Assembly (NCBI GenBank): GCA_963707025.1
Contig: CAVPOM010000012.1
Coordinates: 160,001 to 224,000, forward strand
Direction: 5' to 3'
Source of the DNA: an uncultured Verrucomicrobiae bacterium
Lineage (GTDB): Bacteria; Verrucomicrobiota; Verrucomicrobiia; Limisphaerales; Palsa-1400
Length of the DNA: 64,000 nt
A program made the position numbers and the translations under genes. Position 1 is the first letter of the stretch, and each line of letters opens with the position of its first letter. The notes beneath the pieces are model-generated. The model saw only the letters and a program-made list of their open reading frames with translations, ran no database searches and had not been told where the DNA came from. Positions 39,188-60,959 of the stretch are shown piece by piece.

Positions 39188-39224
39188 TCAATCAGCAACC
39201 GTCAACCCCCGAATCCTCAATCCC

Positions 39225-42285: not shown

Positions 42286-42615
42286 GATTCGCCCAAACAA
42301 TTTTGATTGAAACTCCAGGCGGCCCGGCCCTGCGCCTGGCTTCGATTTTTCGATTTAGTAGGAGGACCCCGGCCGCGAAAGCGGTCCAACGGGGCGGACG
42401 TGGAATCATGGCCGCCCTGTCTTTCCTCGCGAGTGGTGGTGGGGGCGTCAAGCATACGAAACTATGCCCTTCTTCTCCCCAAACCAAAACGGCCGCGCCC
42501 CCTTCGTGGAAGCGGGGGGCGTCGGCCCATTTTTTCCACGGCAGAGCCTCCACACCAAACCCGGCGGACACACCCTGGACAAAAAAGAAGCGTCCGCCAC
42601 AGCCCAAGTATTGAC

Positions 42616-43320
42616 ATGAACAAGAAGCTTCCACATAAAACCGCAGCTCAGAAACCCTCCCCTCCGCCCGATCCCGCCGCCGCCATTCCGCCAGATGTTC
42701 AAGCTCTTCTCGAAAAAGCCCCCCGCCAGAGCCAAAAAACCTTTCGCCTTTGGCTTGCCGCCATCACTGCCCTGGACGCCGCCCCAAACTTACAGAAACG
42801 TGCCACAGCCCGCGTTTGGGCGCGCCGGCTTTCCGTCCGCCCTTCCACCGTCTATAACAAGCGATTCCAGTTTCGGAAAGACGGCCCCATTGCCCTGCTC
42901 GACAAACGCTTTTCAGGCGACCTCTGGAAAGGAAACCGCAGCGGCCTGCCCGGCCTGGCCATCGCCCATTTGAAGCAACTTTCCGACGCCGGGCAACTTC
43001 CCGCAAAGGATGCCATCCGCGCCCTCTTCGCCCAATTGGAACGCTGGCGTGCCGGCGACGCCTCCGCAAGAATTCCTGGCTACGGCCTGCCGCCGGCGGG
43101 CAATCCGCCGAAAGGTTGGACTTCGCGCAACCTGGCCCGGTTTCTTGCGCCCCGCGCCCGCCGCCCCGCGCCCGGCCACGCCGTGTTCAAAGTCGAACTC
43201 GCTCTTCGAAAACAGGGGGACGCCTTGGTCCTGTTCGCCCGCCAGACGTTGCCAAAATCCTCCGCCAAAGCCGCCCCTCTGGCCCGATCCGGCGGCAAAC
43301 TCAAGGTGGTTTTATGCTGA
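42616..43320 (+). CDS. HTH protein resembling an isolated transposase DNA-binding region
   Basis: WARRLSVRPSTVYNK..FRKDGPIALLDKR; IPGY..PKGWTSRNL; no catalytic domain. Confidence 0.6.
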   Translation: MNKKLPHKTAAQKPSPPPDPAAAIPPDVQALLEKAPRQSQKTFRLWLAAITALDAAPNLQKRATARVWARRLSVRPSTVYNKRFQFRKDGPIALLDKRFSGDLWKGNRSGLPGLAIAHLKQLSDAGQLPAKDAIRALFAQLERWRAGDASARIPGYGLPPAGNPPKGWTSRNLARFLAPRARRPAPGHAVFKVELALRKQGDALVLFARQTLPKSSAKAAPLARSGGKLKVVLC

Positions 43321-43543
43321 CAACCCCCTTCCATCAAAAGTGCCCGTCTGGCGCGCCAGGATGCCCGCAGAGCGTTTCGGGGGTATCACCCGCCAGCCCC
43401 CGGTTGCAAGCGCCCTGCAAGGCCCTTTCCGGCCCTGCTATCCCTAAATTCAAGCCTCTTGATCCAGGTTTTCCGCGATTCGCCTTTTTCCGCCATTTTG
43501 CACTCTGCATTCTGCATTCTGCATTTCCAGCGGAGGTTTCCCT

Positions 43544-46267
43544 ATGACCGCCGCGCCCGCCTTCACCGCCGGCCAGATTGCCGACGCGCTGAATTGCTCG
43601 CCCCAAGCCGTCCGCCAGCGCCTTGACGGCATTCCCGGCCAGACGCGGATCGTCCAAGGCGGCCCGGCACTGGCGTGGCCCGTTCAAGCCCTGCCCGGTC
43701 CCGTCCAAACCGAATTGGAAGCAAATGCCGATGCTCGCGGATATCGCAGCCCGCTTCAATTGCTGGCCCACACCGCCGCCGGTTGGCAACCAAAAATCCC
43801 CCTGGCCGAAGCCGCGCCGTCCGCCGTTGAAAAAGCCGTTAAGCTCAAGGCCGCGCTCGCGCCGGCGCTGGCCCGCCTGGACGATCCGGCGCCGGATCGC
43901 GCCGAATCGGAAGAGCTTGCCCTGGCCGAATACCTCAAACAATTCGGCCATGCCATCACCGGCCGCCACTGGCGCAGATTGTTTCACCGCACCCTTGAAC
44001 GCGACGGCGGCGCTCGCGCCTGGCATCGGCTCGAATTATTCCTGGATGACGACGCTGGCCGCCGTGTCCCCGCCAACCGCGCCAGCATCATCGCCCGCGA
44101 ACTTCACGCGCCCCTGGCCGATGCCCTGGACACCCTGGAAAACAAAGCCAAGCCAACCGCAGATGACCGCGCTTTTCTCTTTCACCAAAGCTTCACCCAT
44201 TTTGAGGCGCTGCTTGAAAAGAGCAAGGACCGCCCGGCGCGCCGCCTGCTCAAATCCAGCCTGATTGACTACGTTTTTTCCGCCGTGCCCGGCCTGGCCA
44301 AAAGCGAAAAATCTTTCCGCCAGGTCTTTTCAATGAAATTCCGCGCCTGGCAGGACGGCGGCCGGACCCTGGAATCCGTCCGCGACGCCCGCTCCATGAA
44401 GTCCGGCAATTTCCGCCGCCCCGACTTCACGGAGGATGAAAAGAAAATCCGCGACCTTGCCATTTTGCACGGCGGCAACATCGCCCTGGCTCACCGCAAG
44501 CTGCGCCAGAGCGGCGAACTGTCCCCGGCCTTTGTTGACTATCACCAGTTTGACCCCCGCCAGAATAAGTCCTACGTCCCCGCCACGGTCCGCGCCGCTA
44601 TCACCCCGGACGTGGATATGTGCGCGGCCATCCATCGCGGCCCCTGGCAGGCCAAAATGCGTGGCCCCTACATTCCCCGCGATTGGAGCAACGTCGCCCC
44701 GGCTGACTGGTTTTCGGCGGACGATATTACCTTCAACAGCTACTTCTATTTCTATGACGGCGCCGGCCAGCTCCACATTGAGCGCGGCGAGTGCCTTGTG
44801 ATGATTGACTTCCGCACAGGTTACATTCTCGACTACGTTCTGATTGCCGGCCGTTACAATGCCCGCCACATCCGAAAACTGATTCTCCGCGTCCATGACC
44901 GCCACGGCCTTCCCCGCATCGGCTTTTACTTTGAAAAGGGCGTCTGGAAAGCCCGGATGATTGAAGAGCTTGACAAGAAACATTCCCTCCACTGGCGCGA
45001 AACCGAATGCGGATTGCAAGAACCGGGCATCGGCCTGACCGTCCGCCACGCCACAACGCCCCGCGCCAAGACCATTGAGGGACTCATTCGCATCTGGCAG
45101 GAACGCCAGCGCGCCGAACCCGGCTTTGTCGGTTTCAACGAACGCAGTCAGGAAATGGAGCGGATGCAGGACAAGCTCGCCCGCGCCCGCCGGCACAAAC
45201 TTGACCCCGCCTCTTTCCTTTTGACGATGGAACAATGGGGCGAGCGCCTGGATGCCACTTTTGAGGAATTCAACGCGGACCCGCAGAACGGCAAAATGCT
45301 GGCCGGCGCTTCCCCATTTGAAGCCTGGCGCGCCGGCCTGGAATCCAAGCCCGTCCGCAAACTGCCGGACAACGCCCGCTATTTGCTTGCCTCGCACTGC
45401 AAGCGTCTCACCGTCCGCCAGAGCGGAATCACCTTGACTATCGGCGGCGAGCGAATGCTTTACGCCAATGAACACACTGGCGCTCTGATAGGCCGCGAAG
45501 TCCTGGCCTATTATCACGTTGACTACCCGGACTTGCTAACCGTGGCCGACTTGAACCGCCAAAATCCATTCACCGTGAAACGACTTCTTTTGCCCGCCAT
45601 GACCGCCACGAAAGGGCAACTTGGGGAAGCCCATGCCGCCATTGCCGGACACCGCCAGGCCGCGAAAGTCATTTACGGCGGAATCCGTCACCCCGTCATT
45701 TCCACGATCGCCCGCGACAACGAACAGGACGCCGATTCGGCCGCCCTTGGCGAATTCCAAAACCGCGAAATGGCCGCCTTTGAAACCGAGCAATCCGCCG
45801 ACACCCGCAAACTCCGCAAAATCCAGAGGACGGCCGCCGCCGCCGGCATTGCGACGCCCCGCAACATCCGCAACCCGGATCGCGTCCAAGAGGGATTGGA
45901 CCGCGAGCGGGAAATTATGGAACGCCTCGCGCGCAAACGGAAACCCTTCGCGCCGGCCCGGTCCACCGGCGGGCTTGTCGAGATTGACTGCCAGAAAACC
46001 TACGTGCTTGACGCCGCCGCCGCACCCGCCGCCAATCCGACGCCCGCCAAGTATTGGGCGCTCTGGAAACAGATTGAACAATTCCAGCCCGCTTCATTCC
46101 GGAACGCCCTCACACAAAAGGCCATCGGGCATCATCCCAAGCCGCAAGACATGACGCCAGCCGAGTTGCAGAAAATGATTGAAATTTTCACCTCCATCTT
46201 GCGCCAGTCCGCCAAAGGCCAGGCGACGGCGGACGCCCCAAAACCCTCCACAACCCAAACAGCATGA
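43544..46267 (+). CDS. Mu-like transposase (MuA/TnsB class)
   Basis: N-terminal HTH; WFSADD..MIDFRTGYIL, YFEKG, RAKTIEG core; beta-rich C-domain RLTVRQSGITL. Confidence 0.85.
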   Translation: MTAAPAFTAGQIADALNCSPQAVRQRLDGIPGQTRIVQGGPALAWPVQALPGPVQTELEANADARGYRSPLQLLAHTAAGWQPKIPLAEAAPSAVEKAVKLKAALAPALARLDDPAPDRAESEELALAEYLKQFGHAITGRHWRRLFHRTLERDGGARAWHRLELFLDDDAGRRVPANRASIIARELHAPLADALDTLENKAKPTADDRAFLFHQSFTHFEALLEKSKDRPARRLLKSSLIDYVFSAVPGLAKSEKSFRQVFSMKFRAWQDGGRTLESVRDARSMKSGNFRRPDFTEDEKKIRDLAILHGGNIALAHRKLRQSGELSPAFVDYHQFDPRQNKSYVPATVRAAITPDVDMCAAIHRGPWQAKMRGPYIPRDWSNVAPADWFSADDITFNSYFYFYDGAGQLHIERGECLVMIDFRTGYILDYVLIAGRYNARHIRKLILRVHDRHGLPRIGFYFEKGVWKARMIEELDKKHSLHWRETECGLQEPGIGLTVRHATTPRAKTIEGLIRIWQERQRAEPGFVGFNERSQEMERMQDKLARARRHKLDPASFLLTMEQWGERLDATFEEFNADPQNGKMLAGASPFEAWRAGLESKPVRKLPDNARYLLASHCKRLTVRQSGITLTIGGERMLYANEHTGALIGREVLAYYHVDYPDLLTVADLNRQNPFTVKRLLLPAMTATKGQLGEAHAAIAGHRQAAKVIYGGIRHPVISTIARDNEQDADSAALGEFQNREMAAFETEQSADTRKLRKIQRTAAAAGIATPRNIRNPDRVQEGLDREREIMERLARKRKPFAPARSTGGLVEIDCQKTYVLDAAAAPAANPTPAKYWALWKQIEQFQPASFRNALTQKAIGHHPKPQDMTPAELQKMIEIFTSILRQSAKGQATADAPKPSTTQTA

Positions 46268-47838
46268 GCGTATCCATTATCCGCCCCGAAACCGTCGCCG
46301 CCAAACTGGCCGCCGCCGCCAATCTCTCACAGCCCCTCTTGGCGGAGGAATTCGCCGAACAGCCGCGCCTTGTAGAATTGCTCTGGTTTCTGCAATGGGA
46401 ATCCATGCAACCCGGCGGCCTGGAAAAATTCACCCTGGCCCTTCTTGCGGAATTCCCCGGCCGCATCGGCCCGGCCGCGCTCCTGAGCGCCGGCGCTGGC
46501 AAGCTCACGCAAAAGGAATGCCTCGAAATCTGGCGTCAAATCCCGCCCGGTTATTGGCGCGACATCCTGCCTGACAATGCCTGGCACATGGAAAGTCTGC
46601 GCTCTAGTGAGGATTACGCTGAAAAGGCTTGGGTTGGCGAACGGGTCTTGCCGCAAGAAGAATCGCGCCTGGCCGCCGCGCTGGCGAAATTGAACCGTCA
46701 AGCCTTCGTGGAAGCGGCCACGGCCGCCGCCGAAACAAGCCTGGCCGCTTATCTCACGTCCCTCTGCAATGAGGTCAACAGGCCGCAAAGACACGCTGAC
46801 GGCGAAATGGGCGAGCCTTTAACGAATCCGCCTTGGTATTTTGCCGACATCCTGCCGACGCTCTTTGCCGCGATGGATTCTCACGCGCAGCGCGCCCGCC
46901 AAGGCATCGCTATGACTGAGGTTGCGTTGAAGGTGTTCGACGCCCTGGAATACGCCTGGTCAGAAAAGGCCCTGGTGAATGTCCAGGGCGATTCTCGCTT
47001 TGGAAAAACCGAAGCCGTCAAGACCTGGTGTGCGATGCACCCCGGCAAGGCCCGGCTTGTCACCGTCCCTTGCTCCAACGGCGCGGCGGAGTTATATCGC
47101 GCCTTTGCGGACGCGCTTGGCATCGAGCACTCCTACAAAACGGCCCCGCTCAAGCTCAAGGAACTTGTCGAATTCACCGTCAAGCACAGCGGTTTGATGT
47201 TCGTTGCGGACGAAGCTCACTTTTTGTTTCCGGCCGCCTCTTACAAAAACAGCCCGCCGATGCGATTGAACTGGCTCCGCACTCAAGTCGTGGACCGCAG
47301 CCTGGCCGTGGCGCTGGTGAGCACGCCGCAAGACTATAACCATGCCGCCGCCAAGTTTGTCAAAGCCAGCGGATTCAACCTGGCACAGTGGACCGGCCGC
47401 AAAGCACTGCAAGTCAACCTTCCCGCCGAACTGGACTTTGACGACTTGCTCGCGATTGCGAAATTGAAAGCCCCGGACCTGGACGGCGATTTTCAGGAAT
47501 TGATCGCGGCCAAAGCCCTGCAATCCGAAAACTACATCATGGCCGTTGACGCCATCGCCAAACGCGCCCGCTACGTCGCCAAGCGCGACGGCCACGCGGA
47601 AACCACGCTTGCCGATGTCACCCTGGCCATCGCGGAGGTTATCCCCGCCAGCGCCAGCGCCCCGGCCCCGGCCGGCGCTTTCGCCAGGCCCGCGCCGGCT
47701 GTTGCCCCTATCCGCCAGCCGCGCCGCGCCGCCGCCGCCAATCATCCCCGATCCATCCGCCCCGCCGCGCCCGATCCCGTGCCGGCGCTGCCAATTTCGC
47801 CGCAACGTCAAGCCATCCCGGCCTTAGTTGCCGCGTAA
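46264..47838 (+). CDS. AAA+ transposition ATPase (MuB/TnsC-like)
   Basis: Walker A GDSRFGKT, Walker B FVADEAH; ATGA-coupled to the transposase. Confidence 0.85.
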   Translation: MSVSIIRPETVAAKLAAAANLSQPLLAEEFAEQPRLVELLWFLQWESMQPGGLEKFTLALLAEFPGRIGPAALLSAGAGKLTQKECLEIWRQIPPGYWRDILPDNAWHMESLRSSEDYAEKAWVGERVLPQEESRLAAALAKLNRQAFVEAATAAAETSLAAYLTSLCNEVNRPQRHADGEMGEPLTNPPWYFADILPTLFAAMDSHAQRARQGIAMTEVALKVFDALEYAWSEKALVNVQGDSRFGKTEAVKTWCAMHPGKARLVTVPCSNGAAELYRAFADALGIEHSYKTAPLKLKELVEFTVKHSGLMFVADEAHFLFPAASYKNSPPMRLNWLRTQVVDRSLAVALVSTPQDYNHAAAKFVKASGFNLAQWTGRKALQVNLPAELDFDDLLAIAKLKAPDLDGDFQELIAAKALQSENYIMAVDAIAKRARYVAKRDGHAETTLADVTLAIAEVIPASASAPAPAGAFARPAPAVAPIRQPRRAAAANHPRSIRPAAPDPVPALPISPQRQAIPALVAA

Positions 47839-47850
47839 ACCAAGAAGCCT

Positions 47851-49294
47851 ATGAGTGAATCCGCTGGCAAATACACAATCAAAATCAAAACCGAGCTTGA
47901 GGGCAGCGGCGCGCAGCAAGCCGCCAAGGATGTAAAAGACATCGGCGCGCAAGCCGAAATCAGCCACAAGTCCCTCCGCGAAATTGAGCGTCTCTTGAGC
48001 AAGGGCGGACTTGGCCAGATTGGCGAGATTCTCCGTGCCGCCTTCAACCCGGTCCTGCTTGCCGGCGCCGGCATAGTGGGAATTCTTGAACAGTGGCACA
48101 AGCGGCAGGAAATGATCCATGAGCAAAATCTCAAGCTGATAACGGACGCCGAGGAATACGCGGATCGTCACCGCAAGCTTGCCGCCGCCATCCAAAACCA
48201 ACTTCTTGACTCTCTTAACGCGGCCAAAATCCATGTGGATCACCTGCATGATAGTTTTGACGCCGCCGCCGAAGCCGCCAAGTTGATGACGGATCACGCC
48301 AGCAACATGGCCGCCGCCGCAGAACGCCAGGCGGATGCCCAGGAACGGATCGCCCAGGCCGAAATCGCGCTTGCCGTGGCCAGCGGCCGGATCACCTCCG
48401 GCCAGGGACAGGAAATGCGCGATGCTGAGGAACTGGCCGCGCAGAAACGCAAAGACGCAGCCGAGAATGCCAGGATCGCCTCCGATCAGGCCCGCGCCCA
48501 GGCCGATGCTATGCGCGCCAAAGGCGGATCGTTGGAAACCAACGAAGCCGCCATTCAAACCACTAAGGACACCATCGCAGCCCTCAAAGGCTCTCACGCC
48601 TCCTCCGTCACCGCCGCCGCCGAAGCTCAAACGAAATTCGTTGAAGGCTTTTTTGGCGGGTATAAAAAGGACGTTGGCGGCATGATTGCGGCCGGAAAAT
48701 CCCCGGAGGAAATCCAAAAGTGGATTCAGCCCTTTGGCCAGGAAACGCAAAACCGATTCCAAGAGTGGCAGACAGCCTCCCGCGCCGCCCGCATGACCGA
48801 TCCGGCCCAACAAGAGCAGCATCTTCGTGACCTGGAACGCGAGCATAGCAAATTGGAAGCGCAGTTAGGCCGCTACGACAAGCTCGCCGATGCCCAGGAC
48901 GCCCTTGCCGAACAATATCTCCTGGCCGCCCAAAAACTGAAAGAGGATTTGCAGGATCGCGAGGGAACGCAGCCCGGCGATTATGCGGCGCGGGAGCAAG
49001 CCAACAAAAAGACCGCCGCCGCCCGTTTCATGGATGAATCGCGCAAGAACTACCCCAAAGCGGAATTCGGCCCGCCGGGCAACCAATCCCAACGCCACGC
49101 AAACGCAGCAAATCGAATACGAATTGAGTCAAGGGATCGGTGTGCTTGAGCTTCTGGGCAATAAAGTTCCCGTTGACCCCGCGCTAATCAGGCGGATCGT
49201 CGCCAATCTTAAAGCCTTAAACGATCACGTCACCTCCCATGCCGCCGCCCAAGAGAACCTGGAAAGCAGCTTGGCCGCCAGTCTCGGCCACTAA
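47851..49294 (+). CDS. Ala/Gln-rich coiled-coil protein, tape-measure-like; apparent +1 frameshift at ~49069
   Basis: YTIKIKTELEGSGAQQA start; removing one G gives 480 aa ending TAA overlapping the next ATG. Confidence 0.6.
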
Positions 49295-49526: not shown

Positions 49527-49751
49527 TTAACTCTTTTGGTGTCCGTTTTGGTGTCCGTAATTCCGTCTCGGTGTGGTGAATAACAGCGCCGTCTGCGCGG
49601 ATTCGGCGGCACGGCGGGCGCGGTCGGCCTCGGCCTGTTCCCGGCTGATTCGGTCGCCGTCCAGGGTCGTTACGGTGAACAGGTTAAAAGTCTGTGGCGT
49701 GAACGAAAATTCGTGCTGCGGCACGGGCAAGCGGCGTTTGCTGTGTTTCAT
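49527..49751 (-). CDS. Small hypothetical protein of the integrative element
   Basis: MKHSKRRLPVPQHEF..DGDRI; GGAG upstream. Confidence 0.65.
   Translation of the reverse strand: MKHSKRRLPVPQHEFSFTPQTFNLFTVTTLDGDRISREQAEADRARRAAESAQTALLFTTPRRNYGHQNGHQKS
49538..49558. promoter_or_regulatory. Putative integrase arm-type sites, left end
   Basis: GGTGTCCGTTTTGGTGTCCGT; same pair at 60892-60912. Confidence 0.7.
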
Positions 49752-49770: not shown

Positions 49771-50154
49771 CTAATCCGCCGGGTAAAAGGTGGGATATTT
49801 CTCGCGAGGGTCAATCCAAGTGCCGGTGCGAAACTGGCCGCACGGATGCTGCCAAACCTGCCGCCTCCGGTTCCAATGAAAGCCAAGCTGCGACAACTGC
49901 GCCGTCACGTTGCGCGGCTGCTTCTGGTGAAACTCAACCCAAACCCACTTGCCGACAACCTGGCACAATTCCCAAAAGCGCGGGGTTTCGTGGTAGAGCA
50001 AGTCAATGACTTGTGCCGTGGAAAGTCCCCGGTTCTGGAAACGGAGTCGGAAATCAATCTGATGCAGTGGTGCTGAATCCGCAGATTTTGAAACCGACGA
50101 TGGCCGAACATTCGCCGGTGCTGACGCTTCAATTTTTGAATATGTTGTTTTCAT
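49771..50154 (-). CDS. Hypothetical protein
   Basis: VVGKWVWVEF..LSQLGFHWNRRRQVWQHPCG; 19 nt from next gene. Confidence 0.72.
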   Translation of the reverse strand: MKTTYSKIEASAPANVRPSSVSKSADSAPLHQIDFRLRFQNRGLSTAQVIDLLYHETPRFWELCQVVGKWVWVEFHQKQPRNVTAQLSQLGFHWNRRRQVWQHPCGQFRTGTWIDPREKYPTFYPAD

Positions 50155-50176
50155 AGCTTTTTTTTTGAACCGCTGT

Positions 50177-50375
50177 CCGTCACCCTGCCGTTTGCTGCTC
50201 GCTTCACCTGAATGGGAGACAGCGAAGCCGTGCGCGAAGTGCATTGAAAACCCAGCGAAAGCAAAAGCCGTGACAGAGGCGAAAGGGCAAAAGGGAGACG
50301 CTGGCACGGTTTTTGAACTCGCTCCTGGACCCGGCTCGGTGTCGGACAAGCGAGCAGCAAACGGTGGGGTGACGG
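50177..50375. other. Long-range inverted repeat, 26/28-bp stem
   Basis: CCGTCACCCTGCCGTTTGCTGCTCGCTT (50177-50204) vs AAGCGAGCAGCAAACGGTGGGGTGACGG (50348-50375). Confidence 0.85.
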
Positions 50376-50558
50376 CGTGCGTAAAAAAGGCGCAGAAAAC
50401 AACCTGATAACGGGAAATATGAACGGGCATGCGGGGGTCGCGATGGTCTGACTTCTGATGGCCGGGAGAGACGGGGGCCGTCGCCTGGTGGCTGGCGGGC
50501 AGGCGTAAGGCCAGCGGCTTGCCCGGACGGCAGAGGTCAGACTGAAATTGGGGGTGCT

Positions 50559-50828
50559 GTGAGTGCGGAAAGTTTCGGGAAGTCACTGATGCGCGGCCAG
50601 CCGGCTGATGGGACTTTGCGAAAGTTTCCGCTCACACACCGCCAGGGGAATGCCTGTCTTCGACAGTTTGAGACGGTGGAACGGAGAGAAATGGAAGCGC
50701 GGGCCAGTGGAGAGGTTCACTGGCTGGCGCTGGAACGGAGCGGAGTGGAACCGGCTCTAATTGGCGAAGTCAGGCCCCAAAGCGAGCCGATGTGTCGTTG
50801 AAAGCTGCTTTCGGCGAACTCATCGGCG
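50559..50828. repeat. Structured ~265-bp direct repeat, copy 1
   Basis: Colinear with 58886-59149; compensatory changes in two stems. Confidence 0.85.
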
Positions 50829-50906
50829 TTGTTGAAGGCCATATCCTCTGTAAGTAAAAATGGGCAAATGCTGGGACATGTTTCCGAGATGTTTCCGAAC
50901 AGCTTT

Positions 50907-53900
50907 TTATGGCGCGATCAAGGAGTAATATTGATTTCCAGCGCCGGCGTTGTTTGTGATCGTGTTGTTGGTTCCGACAATGCTGATGCCGGTGGTCACC
51001 TGCGTCCAAGTGATCGGCAAAGTCAGGCTGGCGGTCTTGTTCAACACGAAGGCGCTGGCATTGGCCGGCCAGGATACGATGACGTTCGTCAGGCTGGTCA
51101 CGATGGTCAATGAGGGCGCCGTGATGTTGGCGGCCAGGCCCGCCGGTTGGGTCAGGGTGTAATCGGCGTTGCTGGCCCCGGCCAACGTCAGGCCGCTGAC
51201 GGTCACGGCAATGCCGCTGCCCACTCCGGCGCTGGCAAAATTGGCCACGTAACCGTTGGTGTCGAGGGTCAGCGTGTCGCCGCTGACAATGCCTGAGAGA
51301 ACCACAGAGTTGGAAGCCAGCGTCGCAGCCGTAGTGCGGTCATACACTTTGCTGTTGGCGGTAATGCCGGAACTGATGGTCACGGTCGCCGCCGTGATGT
51401 TGGCGGCCAGGCCCGCCGGTTGGGTCAGGGTGTAATCGGCATTGCTGGCCCCGGCCAGCGTCAGGCCGCTGACGGTCACGGCAATGCCGCTGCCCACTCC
51501 GGCGCCGGCAAAATTGGCCACGTAACCGTTGGTGTCGAGGGTCAGCGTGTCGCCGCTGACAATGCCTGAGAGAAGCACAGAGTTGGAACTGAGCGTCGCG
51601 GTGGTGGTGCGGTCATACACTTTGTTGTTGGCCGTGATGCCGGAACTGATGGTCACGGTTGCCGCCGTGATGCTGGCCGTCAGGCCCGCCGGTTGGGTCA
51701 GGGTGTAATCGGCGTTGCTGGCCCCGGCCAGCGTCAGGCCGCTGACGGTCACGGCTATGCTGTTGCCCACTCCGGCGCTGGCGAAATTGGCAGCGTAGCC
51801 GTTGGTATCGAGGGCCAGCGTGTCGCCGCTGACAATGCCTGAGAGAACCACAGAGTTGGAACTCAGCGTCGCGGCGGTGGTGCGGTCATACACTTTGTTG
51901 TTGGCGGTGATGCCGGAACTGATGGTCACGGTCGCCGCCGTGATGTTGGCGGCCAGGGTGGCCGGTTGGGTGAGGGTGTAATCGGCATTGCTGGCCCCGG
52001 TCAGCGTCAGGCCGCTGACGGTCACGGCAATGCCGTTGCCCACTTCCGCGCTGGCGAAATTGGCAGCGTAGCCGTTGGTATTGAGGGTCAGCGTGTCGCC
52101 GCTGACAATGCCTGAGAGAACCACAGAGTTGGAACTCAGCGTGGCGCTGGTGGTTCGGTCATACACTTTGTTGTTGGCGGTGATGCCGGAACTGATGGTC
52201 ACGGTCGCCGCCGTGATGTTGGCGCCCAGGGTGGCCGGTTGGGTGAGGGTGTAATCGGCGTTGCTGGCCCCGGCCAGCGTCAGGCCGGTGACGGTCACGG
52301 CAATGCCGCTGCCCACTCCGGCGCTGGCGAAATTGGCAGCGTAGCCGTTGGTGTTGAGAGTCAGCGTGTCGCCGCTGACAATGCCTGAGAGAACCACAGA
52401 GTTGGAAGCCAGCGTCGCAGCCGTAGTGCGGTCATACACTTTGCTGTTGGCGGTAATGCCGGAACTGATGGTCACGGTCGCCGCCGTGATGTTGGCGGCC
52501 AGGCCCGCCGGTTGGGTCAGGGTGTAATCGGCATTGCTGGCCCCGGCCAGCGTCAGGCCGCTGACGGTCACGGCAATGCTGTTGCCCACTCCGGCGCTGG
52601 CGAAATTGGCAGCGTAGCCGTTGGTATTGAGGGCCAGCGTGTCGCCGCTGACAATGCCGGAGAGAACCACAGAGTTGGAACTCAGCGTCGCGCTGGTGGT
52701 GCGGTCATATACCTTGCTGTTGGCTGTGATACCGGAACTGATGGTCACGGTCGCCGCCGTGATGTTGGCCGTCAGGCCCGCCGGTTGGGTCAGGGTGTAA
52801 TCGGCGTTGCTGGCCCCGGCCAACGTCAGGCCGCTGACGGTCACGGCAATGCTGTTGCCCACTCCGGCGCTGGCGAAATTGGCAGCGTAGCCGTTGGTAT
52901 TGAGGGCCAGCGTGTCGCCGCTGACAATGCCGGAGAGAACCACAGAGTTGGAACTCAGCGTCGCGCTGGTGGTGCGGTCATATACCTTGCTGTTGGCTGT
53001 GATACCGGAACTGATGGTCACGGTCGCCGCCGTGATGCTGGCCGTCAGGCCCGCCGGTTGGGTCAGGGTGTAATCGGCATTGCTGGCCCCGGCCAACGTC
53101 AGGCCGCTGACGGTCACGGCAATGCCGTTGCCCACTTCCGCGCTGGCGAAGGTGGCGGTGTAGGCGTTGGTGTTCAGGCTCAGCGTGTCGCCGCTGACGA
53201 TGCCTAAGAGAACCACGCTGTTGGAACCGAGCGTGGCGGTCGTCGTCCGGTCATATACCTTGCTGTTGGCTGTGATACCGGAACTGATGGTCACGGCCGC
53301 CGCCGTGATGTTGGCCGTCAGGCCCGCCGGTTGGGTGAGGGTGTAATCGGCGTTGCTGGCCCCGGCCAAGGTCAGGCCGCTAACGGTCACGGCAATGCTG
53401 TTGCCCACTCCGGCACTGGCGAAATTGGCAGCGTAGCCGTTGGTATTGAGGGCCAGCGTGTCGCCGCTGACAATGCCGGAGAGAACCACAGAGTTGGAAC
53501 TCAGCGTCGCGCTGGTGGTGCGGTCATATACCTTGTTGTTGGCTGTGATACCGGAACTGATGGTCACGGTCGCCGCCGTGATGTTGGCCGTCAGGCCCGC
53601 CGGTTGGGTCAGGGTGTAATCGGCGTTGCTGGCCCCGGTCAAGGTCAGGCCACTGACGGTCACGGCAATGCTGTTGCCCACTCCGGCGCTGGCGAAATTG
53701 GCAGCGTAGCCGTTGGTGTTGAGAGTCAGCGTGTCGCCGCTGACGATGCCTAAGAGAACCACGCTGTTGGAACTGAGCGTGGCGGTCGTCGTCCGGTCAT
53801 ATACCTTGCTGTTGGCTGTGATACCGGAACTGATGGTCACGGCCGCCGCCGTGATGTTGGCCGTCAGGCCCGCCGGTTGGGTGAGGGTGTAATCGGCGTT

Positions 53901-56900
53901 GCTGGCCCCGGCCAAGGTCAGGCCGCTAACGGTCACGGCAATGCTGTTGCCCACTCCGGCGCTGGCGAAATTGGCAGCGTAGCCGTTGGTATTGAGGGCC
54001 AGCGTGTCGCCGCTGACAATGCCGGAGAGAACCACAGAGTTGGAACTCAGCGTCGCGCTGGTGGTGCGGTCATATACCTTGTTGTTGGCTGTGATACCGG
54101 AACTGATGGTCACGGCCGCCGCCGTGATGCTGGCCGTCAGGCCCGCCGGTTGGGTCAGGGTGTAATCGGCGTTGCTGGCCCCGGCCAACGTCAGGCCGCT
54201 GACGGTCACGGCAATGCCGTTGCCCACTTCCGCGCTGGCGAAGGTGGCGGTGTAGGCGTTGGTGTTCAGGCTCAGCGTGTCGCCGCTGACGATGCCTAAG
54301 AGAACCACGCTGTTGGAACTGAGCGTGGCGGTCGTCGTCCGGTCATATACCTTGCTGTTGGCTGTGATACCGGAACTGATGGTCACGGCCGCCGCCGTGA
54401 TGTTGGCCGTCAGGCCCGCCGGTTGGGTCAGGGTGTAGTTGGTGGCCCTGGCCCCGGCCAGCGTCAGGCCGCTGACGGTCACGGCAATGCTGTTGCCCAC
54501 TCCGGCGATGGCGAAGTTGGCGACGTAACCGTTGGTGTTCAGGCTCACGGTATCGCCGTTGAAAACGGTTGAGAGCGCCACATTATTGGAATTGAGCGTC
54601 GCCATCGTCGTCCGGTCGTACACCTTGTTATTGACGGTGATGCCTGACGCGATGGTCAGCGGCGAGGGATTGATCGTCAGCGCGCCGTTGACAAAGGGTC
54701 CGAACGTGTAGTTGGCCGCTGCGAGCGTGCCCGATGACGGCGTCACGCTGTAGGTGCCCACCCCGCTTGTCACCGTTGCTGCCGTGCTGAAATCGGGTGC
54801 TCCGCTGACCACGCTAATCGTTTCACCGTTCACGAACCCGCTGTAGGCCGCGCTGAAATCGGGATTCGCCGCGCCGTAATCGCGCGAGGCGGGGTTGGCT
54901 GTGACGGTCAAACCGGCGCGGTTCACCGTCAGCGCGCCGTTGGTGTAAGTGATCGCATAATTGCCCGGCGTGAACGTCCCGCCCGTCGCCGCGCTTGGCA
55001 CAATGCTGTAGGGCGAGCCGCTTACTGGCGCGTTGGAAATGGCGCCATCGCTCGTCAGCGTGACCGTGCCCATTGTCTCGGAGTTCTGCAACGGGGTGGA
55101 AACAAATTCCGTCCCTGCGAAGGTGACGTTTGAGCCGTAAGTTTTGCTAAAGCTGTTTGCGGTGATGCCCAGAGGTGCCGGATTTACGGTGAGTTGGCCG
55201 TTGGCGTAGGTAATGATGTAGTTGGTCAATCCTGCGTCGCCGAGCGCATTGTTGATGGTGATCGCGTAGGGCGAACCGCTGACGGGCGCATTGGAGATGG
55301 CGCCAGTGCTGGCGAGCGAGGCGCTCGTCACGGTATCGCCGTTGACCAGGCCGCTGGTCGCGAACTCGGTACCGGCGAAGCTGAGAGTCTGGCCGTAAGT
55401 CTTGGTCTGGTTGGTCGCGGTGACACTCAACGGCGCTTGCAACACCGTAATCGGCACCTGGAACGAAGCCGGCGCGTCGCTGGGATCGGAGGGCGTAAAC
55501 GTCGCCGTCAGCAATTGGCCAGCCCCCGAATTGAGCACCGTCCCCGCCACGGGATTGTAAGCGAAGGTTCCGGCCACGCTGGGCGTCGTTGAGGGATTCA
55601 ACTGACTCGCACCCAGCGGGGTGCCGTAGGTGATGTTCGCCGGCGTGGCCCAAGTAATCTGCCCAATATTGGTGAGAACCAGGGCAGTGGGTGTGTAGTT
55701 GGTCTTCCAAATGGCACCCGAAGGCGAGGAAAAATTGGTGAATGCGCCAGAAGCTGAAGCGAAAGTCAGAACCGAAAATGAATCGCCTACTGCCGGGAGA
55801 TAACTATTGTTCAAGTGGACGCTGATTGAGCCGTCCAGCGTGGAAGGGTTATCTGAAAGATAAATCTGCCCAAAGCTGGTCAGGTTGCTGATGCCAAAAT
55901 TCAGTGTGCCACCGGTCAAAGCAAAGTCAGCATTCAGACTGATTGTTCCTGCTTCCGCATCCAAAATGCCGCTGTTATTCAGATAAACGTTGAAGCTGGT
56001 GGTGCCGCTTCCGGCGCTCTTGCTCACCGTGCCCGCGTTCTGGAACTGCGCCGAAGTACCTGAGTCGTTATATATCTGCTGGTCACATTGAATGGTCCAC
56101 AGCGCGCCCGCCTCGTTCCAAATCGCGCCCGCGTAATCGGGAATGCCGCTTATGTAGCGTATGTCCACGTCCCCTGCCTGCCAGTTGACCGTCCCCTCAT
56201 TGGTCAAAGCGCCATACAAAGTGAGAGTCCCTTCAATGTTCAACACCCCGTTGCTCGCCACCGTCAGTGACGCGCCAGGGCTGCCATTGTAAAGGTTGCC
56301 ACCGTAAAGGTTCAAGGTGCCGCCCTGAGCGATCTGGCCGGTTACGCTGGCCCCGTAAAGGTTCACTACGCCCGTGAAATCGTTCAGCAGCACGCTGGCA
56401 CCGGTTATTCGCACCAAACCCGGCCCTTGGAATTCAGGCGTAGTGCTCAGGCTCACCGTTCCTCCAGCAAAGTAGATCGCTCCGCTGGCCCCAGCCTGGA
56501 AGCTCCCACCCAAATCACTGCCGTCATTAAAGTCAATCGTGCCGTTCTGCGCCTGCACACTGCCGCTGTTGGCGAAGAAGACATTGAAGCTGGTCGTGCC
56601 GCTTCCGGCGCTCTTGCTCACCGTGCCCGCGTTCTGGAACTGCGCCGGCTGCGCCGAATCACCAGCGTACGAGTTATATATCTGCTGGTCACATTGAATG
56701 GCCCACAGCGCGCCCGCCTCGTTCCAAATCGCGCCCGCGTAGTCGGGATTGCCGCCTATATATGCTATGTCCACGTCGCCTGCCTGCCAGTTCACCGTCC
56801 CCGCATTGGTCAAAGGGCCATACAAAGTGAGAGTCCCTTCAATGTTCAACACCCCGTTGCTCGCCACCGTCAGTGACGCGCCAGGGCTGCCATTGTAAAG

Positions 56901-58508
56901 GTTGCCACCGTAAAGGTTCAAGGTGCCGCCCTGAGCGATCTGGCCGGTTACGCTGGCCCCGTAAAGGTTCACTACGCCCGTGAAATCGTTCAGCAGCACG
57001 CTGGCACCGGTTATTCGCACCAAACCCGGCCCTTGGAATTCAGGCGTAGTGCTCAGGCTCACCGTTCCGCCAGCAAAGTAGATCGCTCCGCTGGCCCCAG
57101 CCTGGAAGCTCCCACCCAAATCACTGCCGTCATTAAAGTCAATCGTGCCGTTCTGCGCCTGCACACTGCCGCTGTTGGCGAAGAAGACATTGAAGCTGGT
57201 CGTGCCGCTTCCGGCGCTCTTGCTCACCGTGCCCGCGTTCTGGAACTGCGCCGGCTGCGCCGAATCACCAGCCAACCCGTTATATATCTGCTGGTCACAT
57301 TGAATGGCCCACAGCGCGCCCGCCTCGTTCCAAATCGCGCCCGCGTAGTCGGGATTGCCGCCTATATATGCTATGTCCACGTCGCCTGCCTGCCAGTTCA
57401 CCGTCCCCGCATTGGTCAAAGGGCCATACAAAGTAACAGTCCCTTCAACGTTCAACACCGCGTTGCTCGCCACCGTCAGTGACGCGCCAGGGCTGCCATT
57501 GTAAAGGTTGCCACCGTAAAGGTTCAAGGTGCCGCCCTGAGCGATTTGACCCGATACGCTGGCCCCGTAAAGGTTCACTACGCCCGTGAAATCGTTCAGC
57601 AGCACGCTGGCACCGGTTATTCGCACCAAACCCGGCCCTTGGAATTCAGGCGTAGTGCTCAGGCTCACCGTTCCGCCAGCAAAGTAGATCGCTCCGCTGG
57701 CCCCAGCCTGGAAGCTCCCACCCAAATCACTGCCGTCATTAAAGTCAATCGTGCCGTTCTGCGCCTGCACACTGCCGCTGTTGGCGAAGAAGACATTGAA
57801 GCTGGTCGTGCCGCTTCCGGCGCTCTTGCTCACCGTGCCCGCGTTCTGGAACTGCGCCGGCTGCGCCGAATCACCAGCCAACCCGTTATATATCTGCTGG
57901 TCACATTGAATGGCCCACAGCGCGCCCGCCTGGTTCCAAATCGCGCCCGCGTAGTTGGGATTGCCGTCTATATATGCTAAGGCCACGTCGCCTGCCTGCC
58001 AGTTCACCGTCCCTGCATTGGTCAGGGGGCTGTAGATTTGAACGCCTCCTTCAATGTTCAACACCCCGTTGCTCGCTATGGTCAAGGAAGAACCCGGATT
58101 TAATTGTCCACCTGTCCAATTGAATAGGCCTTGCACACCAAGGTTGCCGCTGCCCCCAAAACTGCCGCCGCTCACACCAAAGATGCCGTTGGTCCCGATC
58201 ATGCTGGCGTTATTGAGCGTGAGGGAAAAACTGGCGTTCGTAAGGGTTTGTTCTCCGCTGGCGGCACCAAGGGTGAGGCTGTTTATCGTTGGGCTGGTAT
58301 CCAGCGTGACAAGGTAAGTGCCGTCCGCGGCAATTACAGCATCGTCGGACGAACCCGGGACCTGGTTCGGATTCCAGTTGGCGGCCAGGCTCCAGTTTCC
58401 GCCGCTGGTGTTGGTCCAGGTGATCGTAGCTGCTTGGCAGGGAATGATTAAGAAAAAAGCGGCCAAACTACAAAAATGCAAAATGCCGGGACTACTTTTT
58501 GTTTTCAT
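50907..58508 (-). CDS. Giant secreted adhesin-like protein (beta-helix repeats, MBG-like domains, 13 YDG-type repeats)
   Basis: Signal peptide then WTNTSGGNWS..NW; 202-aa repeats; KTYG/RDYG domains; 13 KVYDRTT repeats; start MKTKSS. Confidence 0.9.
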   Translation of the reverse strand: MKTKSSPGILHFCSLAAFFLIIPCQAATITWTNTSGGNWSLAANWNPNQVPGSSDDAVIAADGTYLVTLDTSPTINSLTLGAASGEQTLTNASFSLTLNNASMIGTNGIFGVSGGSFGGSGNLGVQGLFNWTGGQLNPGSSLTIASNGVLNIEGGVQIYSPLTNAGTVNWQAGDVALAYIDGNPNYAGAIWNQAGALWAIQCDQQIYNGLAGDSAQPAQFQNAGTVSKSAGSGTTSFNVFFANSGSVQAQNGTIDFNDGSDLGGSFQAGASGAIYFAGGTVSLSTTPEFQGPGLVRITGASVLLNDFTGVVNLYGASVSGQIAQGGTLNLYGGNLYNGSPGASLTVASNAVLNVEGTVTLYGPLTNAGTVNWQAGDVDIAYIGGNPDYAGAIWNEAGALWAIQCDQQIYNGLAGDSAQPAQFQNAGTVSKSAGSGTTSFNVFFANSGSVQAQNGTIDFNDGSDLGGSFQAGASGAIYFAGGTVSLSTTPEFQGPGLVRITGASVLLNDFTGVVNLYGASVTGQIAQGGTLNLYGGNLYNGSPGASLTVASNGVLNIEGTLTLYGPLTNAGTVNWQAGDVDIAYIGGNPDYAGAIWNEAGALWAIQCDQQIYNSYAGDSAQPAQFQNAGTVSKSAGSGTTSFNVFFANSGSVQAQNGTIDFNDGSDLGGSFQAGASGAIYFAGGTVSLSTTPEFQGPGLVRITGASVLLNDFTGVVNLYGASVTGQIAQGGTLNLYGGNLYNGSPGASLTVASNGVLNIEGTLTLYGALTNEGTVNWQAGDVDIRYISGIPDYAGAIWNEAGALWTIQCDQQIYNDSGTSAQFQNAGTVSKSAGSGTTSFNVYLNNSGILDAEAGTISLNADFALTGGTLNFGISNLTSFGQIYLSDNPSTLDGSISVHLNNSYLPAVGDSFSVLTFASASGAFTNFSSPSGAIWKTNYTPTALVLTNIGQITWATPANITYGTPLGASQLNPSTTPSVAGTFAYNPVAGTVLNSGAGQLLTATFTPSDPSDAPASFQVPITVLQAPLSVTATNQTKTYGQTLSFAGTEFATSGLVNGDTVTSASLASTGAISNAPVSGSPYAITINNALGDAGLTNYIITYANGQLTVNPAPLGITANSFSKTYGSNVTFAGTEFVSTPLQNSETMGTVTLTSDGAISNAPVSGSPYSIVPSAATGGTFTPGNYAITYTNGALTVNRAGLTVTANPASRDYGAANPDFSAAYSGFVNGETISVVSGAPDFSTAATVTSGVGTYSVTPSSGTLAAANYTFGPFVNGALTINPSPLTIASGITVNNKVYDRTTMATLNSNNVALSTVFNGDTVSLNTNGYVANFAIAGVGNSIAVTVSGLTLAGARATNYTLTQPAGLTANITAAAVTISSGITANSKVYDRTTTATLSSNSVVLLGIVSGDTLSLNTNAYTATFASAEVGNGIAVTVSGLTLAGASNADYTLTQPAGLTASITAAAVTISSGITANNKVYDRTTSATLSSNSVVLSGIVSGDTLALNTNGYAANFASAGVGNSIAVTVSGLTLAGASNADYTLTQPAGLTANITAAAVTISSGITANSKVYDRTTTATLSSNSVVLLGIVSGDTLTLNTNGYAANFASAGVGNSIAVTVSGLTLTGASNADYTLTQPAGLTANITAATVTISSGITANNKVYDRTTSATLSSNSVVLSGIVSGDTLALNTNGYAANFASAGVGNSIAVTVSGLTLAGASNADYTLTQPAGLTANITAAAVTISSGITANSKVYDRTTTATLGSNSVVLLGIVSGDTLSLNTNAYTATFASAEVGNGIAVTVSGLTLAGASNADYTLTQPAGLTASITAATVTISSGITANSKVYDRTTSATLSSNSVVLSGIVSGDTLALNTNGYAANFASAGVGNSIAVTVSGLTLAGASNADYTLTQPAGLTANITAATVTISSGITANSKVYDRTTSATLSSNSVVLSGIVSGDTLALNTNGYAANFASAGVGNSIAVTVSGLTLAGASNADYTLTQPAGLAANITAATVTISSGITANSKVYDRTTAATLASNSVVLSGIVSGDTLTLNTNGYAANFASAGVGSGIAVTVTGLTLAGASNADYTLTQPATLGANITAATVTISSGITANNKVYDRTTSATLSSNSVVLSGIVSGDTLTLNTNGYAANFASAEVGNGIAVTVSGLTLTGASNADYTLTQPATLAANITAATVTISSGITANNKVYDRTTAATLSSNSVVLSGIVSGDTLALDTNGYAANFASAGVGNSIAVTVSGLTLAGASNADYTLTQPAGLTASITAATVTISSGITANNKVYDRTTTATLSSNSVLLSGIVSGDTLTLDTNGYVANFAGAGVGSGIAVTVSGLTLAGASNADYTLTQPAGLAANITAATVTISSGITANSKVYDRTTAATLASNSVVLSGIVSGDTLTLDTNGYVANFASAGVGSGIAVTVSGLTLAGASNADYTLTQPAGLAANITAPSLTIVTSLTNVIVSWPANASAFVLNKTASLTLPITWTQVTTGISIVGTNNTITNNAGAGNQYYSLIAP
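51117..54665 (-). repeat. 13 x 273-bp intragenic tandem repeats
   Basis: 273-nt period (e.g. 51121 and 51394); 91-aa units. Confidence 0.92.
55990..58085 (-). repeat. About 3.5 x 606-bp intragenic tandem repeats
   Basis: TGGAACTGCGCCGG at 56635, 57241, 57847. Confidence 0.9.
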
Positions 58509-58885
58509 ACAGAATGCCTGATGGTTTTCGTGCTGCCGCGTTCCGAGGAAAGGCGATGAACACCTCATCTCAGATCGAAAAACAGCCAAATTGGTTTATG
58601 GAATATCGTAATTTGTCCATCAAACGGACTTTAATGTCAACGAAGATTCAATGAATAATCAGAGCCAACGAGGAATCGGTTCAATTGGGCGACGGCGGGT
58701 GCCCGACTGCGAACTGCATTTTCTGCCTCTTGTTCTGGAGGTCAGGCTGGAAGAACTGTTTCCAAAAATGTCCCTTTCAGGAAGATTGGGCCGCATTTCC
58801 AATCCGGCGCAAGCCTCGCAGTTTTCCCAATCCATGCCGAAAATTGAGGGGGCCTTCCTTGGCTCCAGAATTTAGTTGTGACGAA

Positions 58886-59149
58886 GTGAGGGCGGCAGTT
58901 TCGGCAAAGCCCTGATGCGCGGCCTGCCGGCTGAGGGACTTGGCGAAAGCTTACGCGCTCATGGCGCCAGGGCAGCCTGTCTTCGGCGATTTGAGACGGT
59001 GGAACGCCGTGGAATGGAAGCGCGGGCCGGTGGAGCGGTTCACCGGGCGGCGCTGGAATGGAGCGGAGTGGAATCGGCTTGAATTGGCGAAGTCAGGCCC
59101 GTCCGCAGCCGATGTGTCGTTGGAAGCTGCTTCCGGCGACTCATCGGCG
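58886..59149. repeat. Structured ~265-bp direct repeat, copy 2
   Basis: Colinear with 50559-50828. Confidence 0.85.
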
Positions 59150-59235: not shown

Positions 59236-59730
59236 ATGGCAAGACCTATTCAAATTGATGTGAAACGTGTGACCCAAGCGAGGCTCACGGTGAAAGCGAC
59301 CCGAAATCTTGATGACTTTAAGTCGGCGCTGGCGATCCTACTACCGGCTCAAGCGGGACTGACTCTCGAGGAAACCGCCCGCATGTTGGGTGTCGGAACG
59401 GCGTCGGTTAATCGATTGCAAGCCCGGCTGCACGTTGGTCGCACCACCTGGTCAGAGCGACGCAATTGCCAGCCGCATGACGTGCCGGTTCTGGTCGCCA
59501 CCCGGCTGTTGAAGCCGTTGGGTAATCCGGTGCCAAGTGCTGTCAAGTACTTTTCAAGGTTGGAAATCCTGGACCTCGCGCAGGATCGTAGCTGGCTGGT
59601 GAGGGTGACGAACGCCGTCAATCAGCACTGGCAAACAAAAAATGCCCAAAGGAAAAACCGCTCTGTGAGTGGTCCACAGAACGATCCTCCCCGCCTGGTT
59701 GGAATGCCAGCGGTTTCCACCTTCGGTTGA
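59236..59730 (+). pseudogene. Probable chimera: IS630-like HTH fragment fused to the 3' part of an element HTH gene
   Basis: GLTLEETARMLGVGTASVNRLQ, then abrupt switch to CQPHDVPVLVATRLLKPLGNP. Confidence 0.5.
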
Positions 59731-59735
59731 CGCTC

Positions 59736-60783
59736 TCAAGCGACGGCGGCTGGCATTGGCACAATCACGCCCTCGGCGGCAGCGAATTTCCTCTCATAAT
59801 CCTCCAAGGTTGGAATCACCACTTGGGCTTTTCTCGCGTAGGCGCGATGGACGGCCTTGCTTTGGTGCCCCAAAGCCTCCTGGGCGAATCTTTCCGGGTA
59901 GCCGCAGGTCTTTGGCGCGTTCCGCCCAAGCGTAGCAGTAGGAATGCAGGGTGATGCCTTTAATCATCAACCGGCGGCAGGCGCGGGCGAACTCCGTTGC
60001 CCGGTGCCCCTCCCGCATCGGCATGAGTTGGGGGAAGAGCGGACCTGATTGCGGGAGCGTCCGCAACACGGCCTCAAGCTCTCCGCCAAAGCGGATGATC
60101 GAAGCGGTTCCGGTCTTGTGGCGGTGGAAGCTGACGACCTTGCCGTGCCAGTCAATATCCTCTGCGGTCAAGCTCGCAAGGTCGGATTGAGCGCCGCCCA
60201 GGAGCCAGCAGAATTCGTAAAACGCCCGGCGTTCCGGGTTCAGTTCGCCGGTGATGATGGCTCCATGTTCTTCCCTGGTGATGGCCCGTTTGGCTTTGAA
60301 CCGCACAGCCGGCCATTGGCGTTTGGGCACCAGTGGCCAGGCGAGCCAGTTCATGTCCAGGCAGAAGTTGTGCAGGCGGCGCAGATAAACGTTGGTCGAG
60401 ACCGTGCCGCTTTGAAGGGTCTTGAGCAATAGTTCGCCCGGCGTGTCAATGATGGTGCGGGGGAGCAACGGGGCAAGCGCCCTGTCTTTTGCCACGCGCA
60501 GCCAGCGTTGGCGGTTGGCCCCTTGCTTGGACTCAATCAGCGTTTCCATTGCTTGCTGCCAGGTGCGGGTGGTCAGGGCGTTGTCGGCACCCGCCAAATA
60601 GGCTCTGGCGATTTGCAGGTTGAGGACCGGCTGGCGCTCGGCGGCATTCTGGGCCTCGATAATCTGTCTGGCCTCCGGCTCGCTGGTGGTGTGAAGGCTG
60701 GCGCGCTTGCCTGTTTTCTTGTCAACAGAATAATATGTTCCGCCGCGGATGCCACGGAAGATTAAGCGGTAACGTGCATTCAT
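59736..60783 (-). pseudogene. Tyrosine integrase with HxxR changed to HxxC and a +1 frameshift
   Basis: EDIDW, KTG, LHSYCY; after one extra A (~59912) the frame continues TCGYPERFAQEALGHQSKAVHRAY to TGA at 59736. Confidence 0.85.
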
Positions 60784-60959
60784 AACTTTTCTCACGTAAC
60801 CGCGATGGTAAAAGAACCCGAATCCGAACCGTTAGCGAGTAGCGGGAGAGTTATCCCCGGTTATCGCGAATTCTGACGGAGTACCAAATTTGGTGTCCGT
60901 TCCGGTGTCCGTTTTGGACCTTGCCGCTGCCAACTCCTTGCTGCGCAAGCAGTTGGAGA

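Follow-up and report, generated by a model that had tools for sequence, protein, structure and literature searches.

Organization of the locus

The 64,000-nucleotide (nt) stretch of contig CAVPOM010000012.1 analysed here (the window), from an uncultured Verrucomicrobiae bacterium (Limisphaerales, Palsa-1400), carries two copies of an array of hairpins, designated H1 to H4. An earlier note on this DNA had described direct repeats at 50559-50828 and 58886-59149, enclosing only a giant surface-protein gene. These repeats are real, colinear, and identical at 226 of 264 aligned positions, and a 2560-amino-acid (aa) open reading frame (ORF) at 50907-58589, likely starting with the ATG at 58508 to judge by its sequence, is the sole gene called between them. 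The features are given below, R1 being a covariance model of H3.

50445..50543, plus strand: hairpin H1 of copy 1, an imperfect rod with G.A and G.T mismatches that folds and is conserved in other copies
50559..50637, plus strand: hairpin H2 of copy 1, from folding
50652..50775, plus strand: hairpin H3 of copy 1, the most conserved part (R1 match of 145 bits)
50786..50827, plus strand: hairpin H4 of copy 1, from folding
50907..58589, minus strand: cargo gene for a giant repetitive surface protein with 13 YDG and 3 MBG_2 stretches
58876..59149, plus strand: copy 2 (H2-H3-H4), from alignment and folding (R1 match of 147 bits)

Copy 1 reaches about 130 nt further 5' than the repeat first described, with a unit start near 50430. 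The hairpin thus gained, H1, is common to other family copies; no trace of it is found before copy 2, which opens at the H1/H2 linker and consists of H2-H3-H4 only. H3 has a T.T mismatch in its base stem and, further, four 3x3 GNA/GNA internal loops with 2-base-pair (bp) stems between them.

At E <= 0.01 the source genome gives 12 family matches, of which three span nearly all of the 270 nt first described. Over shared columns, copy 2 is 93.5% identical to a copy on another contig of this genome and 82% identical to copy 1. As copy 1 ranks only 30th of 32 among the neighbours of copy 2, the window copies are not a cognate pair, and the proposal of a cargo gene bracketed by matched, attC-like repeats gives way to distant members of a dispersed family. 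Across 100 loci, copies are freely truncated and modular: 33 of 72 dereplicated 5' ends are full length, the remainder being scattered over 11 bins. The flanks vary on both sides, often passing into further hairpin modules, and in other loci the array runs on for more than 1 kb with such modules. Three decayed copies lie about 600 nt apart beside a tRNA-like sequence at L066:336-1734, which is probably the scar of repeated island insertion.

Selection on the fold

Both copies fold far above chance, with a bias to the plus strand. RNA folding z-scores are -7.3 (plus) and -4.9 (minus) for copy 1, and -6.2 and -2.4 for copy 2; the corresponding DNA values are -7.3 and -4.1, and -5.6 and -1.9. The compensatory words reported earlier are exact, with CCAGTG/CACTGG (50704-50723) in copy 1 standing against CCGGTG/CACCGG (59027-59046) in copy 2, and GAAAG/CTTTC (50800-50812) against GGAAG/CTTCC (59122-59134). 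Each copy also retains nine YGGAR words, the (T/C)GGA(A/G) pattern pointed out before. Among the 89 pairs of the copy-1 DNA fold, 79 are kept in copy 2 (70 unchanged, 6 with a single change, 3 with a double change) and 10 are broken.

The wider family gives the same picture. In 26 H3 sequences, 92.3% of 1132 cells are paired and 12 of 44 pairs include double changes, against a structure derived from those same sequences; this pairing is reached by none of 500 shuffles and lies above all slid controls. When 33 copies were placed on a tree, 16 double changes had both sides on the same branch and 11 of these left the pairing intact, versus 1.8 +- 1.5 for re-paired columns (0/1000). The alifold consensus regained H1 and H4 only partly, so the tree test mainly covers H2 and H3. 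A conserved ORF as the cause of the similarity can be rejected, because 116 of 119 indels, scored against one reference, are not multiples of 3. With covariation significant in both the H3 set and the tree, the suggestion of selection on single-stranded structure is upheld. Distant homologues hold the base stem and the 5-nt periodic YGNAR words, with changing stems and loops.

An insertion sequence (IS) end had also been raised as an explanation. No transposase family recurs beside the element in the gene maps, and in a comparison with the ends of IS and miniature inverted-repeat transposable elements (MITEs) the flanks varied on both sides; no library of IS ends was searched.

DNA-type versus RNA-type loops

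In the 3x3 loops of H3, one YGNAR word faces another. The G and A at the outside are kept, and the middle base is variable: the first G is present in 200 of 208 zipper loops, the last A in 192, and a middle G in only 162, with a preceding pyrimidine in 200 and a following purine in 202. To our knowledge, the guanine-zipper motif is recognized only from centromeric satellite DNA in vitro. The antiparallel YGGAR pattern is that of the guanine zipper, (GGA)2, of human satellite III DNA (PMC11014236).

GNA triloops are a second DNA-type signature. GNA mini-hairpins are described as stabler in DNA than in RNA, and as present at the G4, RSF1010 ssiA, and N4 signals (PMC13037366). In 34 arrays, dereplicated from 38, there are 85 GNA triloops versus 35 +- 6 in shuffled sequences and 14 on the other strand; with 4-bp stems the figures are 34 versus 9. 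The RNA-type tetraloops GNRA (21 vs 21) and UNCG (10 vs 11) are at chance in the same arrays. As the arrays are related, these shuffle counts overstate independence. The host rRNA operon behaves in the reverse manner (GNRA 16 vs 3.5, UNCG 6 vs 1.3, GNA 10 vs 6.1), and GNA triloops are enriched, as in the arrays, in the CUP regions of R46 (10 vs 3.0) and the Frpo regions of F (5 vs 1.9). On account of the YGNAR/YGNAR zippers, the enriched GNA triloops, and the lack of GNRA or UNCG excess, the folds look like DNA rather than RNA. Such a GNA-versus-GNRA loop test with controls may help in assigning other structured repeats to DNA or RNA.

As a separate observation, a palindromic REP-like element of about 33 nt is inserted in H3 at zipper positions in L020, L033, L035, L036, and L152:2370-2345.

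Distribution of the family

By blastn, 17 of 30 further genomes from the host family have the element, and none of 30 genomes from other families of the order. Of 150 other genomes from the order, R1 was positive in 15 (14 of them not of the host family), and it was negative in all of 150 genomes sampled from the rest of the phylum under strict filters. In these samples, the covariance-model check advised in the earlier note gives matches within the order only, where the occurrence of the family is sporadic. An exact 24-nt pattern matched at least 120 metagenome stretches, 80 of which were taken for study, and no viral contig. Relatives of the linked gene are mostly from Verrucomicrobiota, several from subdivision 3/Limisphaerales. 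The array is carried by many mobile elements of these peat and soil bacteria.

The statement that no known family is recognized agrees with Rfam 15, which returned no match at the gathering threshold; at E <= 10, four chance matches were obtained on 50000-51000, none of them to the H1-H4 fold as a family. A blastn search of 72,556 plasmids and 50,697 phage records yielded no match, and no account of the hairpin family was found in a literature search covering few subscription journals.

Carrier elements and the folding strand

Gene maps comprised 706 ORFs from 100 loci, sorted by shared DNA into 73 groups. The commonest neighbours are integrases (tyrosine integrases leading, at 26 loci), an MbeA-type mobilisation block, the VVGKWVW operon described below, excisionase-like genes, and a G2P-type Rep. 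The carriers are integrative elements: inovirus-like prophages, rolling-circle Rep elements, relaxase elements, and tail-less capsid elements. Their cargo, often restriction-modification or helicase genes or giant surface proteins, is highly variable beside the array and shows no significant orientation bias.

The folding strand is the coding strand of the G2P-type Rep in four of four proteins, plus L255 and L302, the array lying 1-2.3 kb upstream of rep in L065 and L133. In the inovirus-like L142, the coat-like, Zot-like, Rep, and all virion-like genes are on the folding strand. It is opposite to the MbeA-linked genes in 12 of 12 cases, the MbeA of the carriers being 32% identical to that of ColE1, and opposite to TrwC and the coupling protein in L250. 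L300 has a relaxase which we take to be MOBQ-like and, behind an inverted repeat, what is presumably a nic-like motif (2 mismatches), both on the folding strand. General rules state which strand becomes single in Rep, inovirus, and relaxase elements (PMC11541004, PMC5714925), and under these rules the folding strand would be the expected single strand in four Rep/relaxase classes.

Two inovirus-like integrated prophages of Verrucomicrobiota, L142:10322-20023 and L252:1918-10851, have coat-like, Zot-like, and SSB-like genes and, directly after the array, two conserved genes of unknown function; L142 has a G2P Rep, and the array in L252 is a remnant. The capsid elements contain integrase, primase, and head genes, and no tail gene was seen in the stretches read. 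Compact ones (L231, L240, L258-L267, L303, and L304) encode integrase, primase, terminase, portal, scaffold, major head, and head-tail adaptor, likewise with no tail gene seen and with variable cargo between terminase and portal; they possibly form an undescribed family of capsid-forming satellites.

The VVGKWVW operon and hairpin H0

Upstream of copy 1 lie a further hairpin, H0, and the operon most tightly linked to the array.

49527..49751, minus strand: 74-aa gene, second of the VVGKWVW operon, from gene calls and neighbour clusters
49771..50154, minus strand: 127-aa gene of the 'VVGKWVW' family, of unknown function, first of the operon
50146..50401, plus strand: hairpin H0, a long stem with the complement of the adjacent minus-strand start codon paired at its base

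The VVGKWVW family counts 481 representatives at E <= 0.001, with seven copies in the source genome, and its protein has an invariant-rich C-terminal WQHPCG motif. Elsewhere the gene is followed by DUF6573. The family also occurs in unrelated tailed-phage-like contigs lacking the array. No Pfam, PHROG, or NCBIfam match was obtained for the protein, and the fold predicted for the 127-aa product (predicted local distance difference test score, pLDDT, 88) gave no clear match (best Z 3.6), with unnamed clusters only in the structure atlas.

R1 matches upstream of and antisense to the VVGKWVW gene occur at 8 of 24 viral loci and 22 of 50 genome loci, some weak matches being to H0 or other modules and some loci repeating earlier ones; none of these 74 loci matches best on the opposite strand. 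At 35 of 38 loci H0 pairs the start codon on the antisense strand, and the predicted mRNA fold pairs it at 36 of 38. The antisense strand folds better in 35 of the 38 H0 regions. A conserved 19-nt H0 apex is known from 49 distinct examples chosen by that motif (e.g., L309, L312, and L318) and looks, from its sequence, like a candidate protein-binding or nicking site; the H0 of the window has a different apex.

A probable folded single-stranded DNA signal

The array is best read, with a probability of roughly 0.6, as a folded single-stranded DNA (ssDNA) origin or promoter of the sso/ssi/Frpo type on mobile elements. Among the three candidates put forward in the earlier note, it is thus the ssDNA origin or promoter that is favoured; the attC-like site is not supported, and the non-coding RNA (ncRNA) is weakened by the loops. 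H1-H4 would be the shared core of a modular hairpin array acting in cis as folded ssDNA. The single-stranded phase would be a rolling-circle intermediate, a filamentous virion, or the strand transferred by a relaxase, in which the G-rich strand would fold into imperfect rods held by G.T pairs, sheared G.A pairs, GNA/GNA zippers, and GNA triloops. The fold would be recognized by an enzyme of the host or of the element, with RNA polymerase, primase, and PriA as candidates, which may then make a primer from which the complementary strand is synthesized, or transcribe early the opposite-strand genes on the 5' side.

Several observations weigh against this interpretation. The independent strand events are few: the 12 MbeA loci fall into 2 groups and the Rep loci into 2 groups, so that the strand evidence amounts to about four independent classes. 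Some rows were set aside in that count, mostly as parts of other units, namely L253 (same-strand TrwC beyond an att site), L286 (MbeA match beyond a tRNA), L330 (Rep match without array), and L244 and L288 (same-strand MOBQ-like fragment, uninspected). A nic site was looked for in the MbeA elements and none was found, and in only 18 of 26 groups does the closest gene on the 5' side lie on the opposite strand (p = 0.08). No sigma-70 consensus match lies inside either copy, and promoter and terminator scans were at chance level; this consensus may not be the host's. As GNA enrichment is not significant in the control regions of M13, pUB110, pTA1060, and ColE1, it is no general sso marker, and window copies 1 and 2 are themselves not rich in GNA triloops. 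In 19 metatranscriptome runs, shares of 0.07-0.17 were found for a relative's copy (that of L152, not the window's).

Carriage by capsid elements fits poorly. In at least 16 of the 74 VVGKWVW loci, the module is flanked by the terminase and portal genes of capsid-encoding elements, which presumably package double-stranded DNA (dsDNA) and in which the folding strand is the late mRNA strand; we know of no ssDNA stage for such tail-less elements. Mobilisation in trans, strand-displacement replication by the element's own primase, cruciform extrusion, or an RNA role might each account for it. A more far-reaching version, held as rather doubtful, would make of the guanine-zipper ladder an order-wide ssDNA signal and common entry module, combining origin, early promoter, and its own operon; capsid elements would pass through, or be delivered as, ssDNA, possibly nicked at the H0 apex. 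The companion idea that this module is exchanged among inoviruses, relaxase elements, and tail-less capsid satellites is equally tentative.

Work on single-strand origins and promoters has dealt with only a few enteric and Gram-positive replicons, and genome annotation hardly ever records them. The family described here provides a well-aligned set of candidate ssDNA signals from Verrucomicrobiota with covariation support. It is also a candidate for a guanine zipper conserved in natural DNA, and can serve to flag cryptic mobile elements. If it is true that capsid elements use the array as ssDNA, their life cycle would be unlike that of known phage satellites.

Competing explanations

A structured ncRNA made from the folding strand and carried by mobile elements as a decoy, antisense RNA, or scaffold, in the manner of large phage ncRNAs, is unlikely, in spite of strong RNA folding z-scores, the stability of tandem G.A loops in RNA too, and coverage of the element by contigs of all four RNA runs examined. 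The folding strand is, moreover, the late-gene sense strand in capsid and inovirus-like elements. Nevertheless, the arrays lack the excess of GNRA and UNCG loops that host rRNA has, Rfam offers no match, the copies are freely truncated and modular, and copy 1 has no terminator after it. The RNA contigs themselves comprise many variants at a depth of about 2-24 and often run past the ends of the element, with strand, ends, and level invisible and DNA possibly present.

The pairing of the start codon in H0 and the fixed position upstream of the operon are what a regulatory leader of the opposite-strand operon would have, acting on mRNA or dsDNA in the manner of EGeRS1 or CUP. Its hairpins would block read-through and hide the start codon, silencing establishment genes while the element is integrated; EGeRS1 consists of 400-750-nt inverted-repeat regions that block read-through (PMC8708921). 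This, too, is quite improbable, as the antisense strand is the better folder in 35 of 38 H0 regions and in both window copies, the G.A zippers turn into C.T mismatches on the mRNA strand, and the operon is absent beside many H1-H4 copies, copy 2 among them. A leader may hold for H0, yet it leaves H3 unexplained.

Very little now favours an attC-like folded site at which cargo genes are captured or exchanged by recombination. In 9 of the 100 loci (8 distinct contigs), 0.6-9 kb is flanked by two or more copies that lie on the same strand over 400 nt from one another, and one locus has an inverted distant copy; several partial copies begin near the H1/H2 linker, and the frequency of tyrosine integrases and the variable cargo would fit as well. 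However, the 5' ends of partial copies spread over 11 bins, the window copies are no cognate pair, and no long cassette arrays were seen, copies being mostly single and numbering at most three, decayed, in L066. The integrases have their own tRNA-type att ends, and the pairs are explained by ordinary homologous recombination, the copies being 80-90% identical.

An ssDNA packaging or export signal, or a structure excluding SSB or shielding against nucleases and later spread to satellites, is scarcely to be expected, since, for all that in L142 (as a remnant, in L252) the array shortly precedes the gene block on the virion-sense strand and that mini-hairpins resist SSB and nucleases (PMC13037366), many carriers are without morphogenesis genes and nothing matches M13.

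Comparison with known systems

As an ssDNA origin or promoter, the array would work like Frpo, sso, or ssi, yet by sequence it is no member of these groups. The Frpo/ssi signals of F and ColIb-P9 (PMC11541004) are likewise long imperfect hairpins antisense to small genes of unknown function on the 5' side, are repeated within the replicon, and have an excess of GNA triloops. The placement of R1 matches upstream of and antisense to the VVGKWVW gene is the Frpo geometry of F (PMC11541004), with the hairpin antisense to and upstream of the leading genes on the strand presumed to be transferred. The differences are that no -35/-10 pair was found in the array with the sigma-70 consensus, that the GNA/GNA zipper ladder is its own, and that it resides on several element classes, whereas Frpo resides on large conjugative plasmids. 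No significant sequence or model match to the F leading region (48000-68000) was obtained.

Lagging-strand origins include sso, the filamentous-phage minus-strand origin, and n'-pas/ssiA of ColE1 (PMC5714925, PMC3167613). They share with the array a strand-specific fold on the Rep-coding (displaced) strand, in few independent Rep families; the array is larger and modular. The host genome has PriA. ColE1 1295-1378 is, like the array, YGNAR-rich on one strand only. A likeness to the n'-pas words of ColE1 came down to this shared word bias, the consensus not having been found in the literature, and stays a lead. R1 gave nothing significant against ColE1 (best E 0.15), nor against F, M13, pUB110, pTA1060, and R46 (best E 0.02, with AT-rich terminator-like matches).

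CUP repeats and EGeRS1 are analogues (PMC5371602, PMC8708921, PMC6294495, PMC3167613, PMC5935869). The CUP repeats of IncN plasmids are direct repeats upstream of leading-region operons that recombine with one another (PMC5371602), with GNA triloops enriched on the antisense strand, as in the array. They differ in that the array does not match R46, has no identified ArdK-type regulator, and occurs in 1-2 copies per element, with no regulon. EGeRS1 of pLS20 (PMC8708921) resembles the array in its 400-750-nt multi-hairpin regions upstream of establishment operons and its 5'-truncated variants; the transferred strand is reported there as the non-template strand, whereas the folding strand is the template here. 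The guanine zipper of satellite III (PMC11014236) also has antiparallel YGGAR words every 5 nt with conserved outer G and A. It is a structural motif and no homologue; the middle bases vary in the array, whose zipper is deduced from sequence.

Neighbouring features and history of the window

Beyond copy 2, three further features were recognized.

59466..59730, plus strand: remnant of a gene of about 128 aa that in L142 and L154 follows the rolling-circle Rep gene, its 5' part replaced by a helix-turn-helix (HTH)-like fragment
59794..60795, minus strand: tyrosine integrase, 50% identical to that of L154
60957..60985, minus strand: att-like end, matching at 28 of 29 positions the 3' end of a tRNA-Cys gene from another part of the genome

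The integrase, which when examined as a possible integron integrase (IntI) matched generic PHROG integrase families and no NCBIfam model, is possibly broken, because similarity fades near residue 296. Copy 2, the cargo gene, the gene remnant, the integrase, and the att-like end would together represent a deleted element of the L142/L154 type, and copy 1 with H0 and the small operon would belong to another, adjacent element. Bracketing of the cargo may then have arisen incidentally, from the two elements lying side by side or from copies recombining by homology; a boundary between the two units was not found in the window. The direct repeat at 50877-50898, considered as an integrase arm site, was rejected, being not above chance and having no partner.

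The region 36885-49294, with an HTH repressor, a 907-aa transposase-like ORF without family match, and a transposition ATPase (phrog_296), is a Mu-like transposable element or prophage remnant. It adjoins the small operon at the place where DUF6573 usually comes.

Other repeats were observed elsewhere in the window. AT-rich hexamer repeats, direct and inverted, occur at 4010-4058 and 5213-5316. Inverted 34-35-nt AT-rich repeats at 28852-29023 and 29679-29712 surround a small gene and are possibly transposon-like ends. A 43-nt palindromic REP-like repeat is present in inverted orientation at 7678-7720 and 28327-28369.

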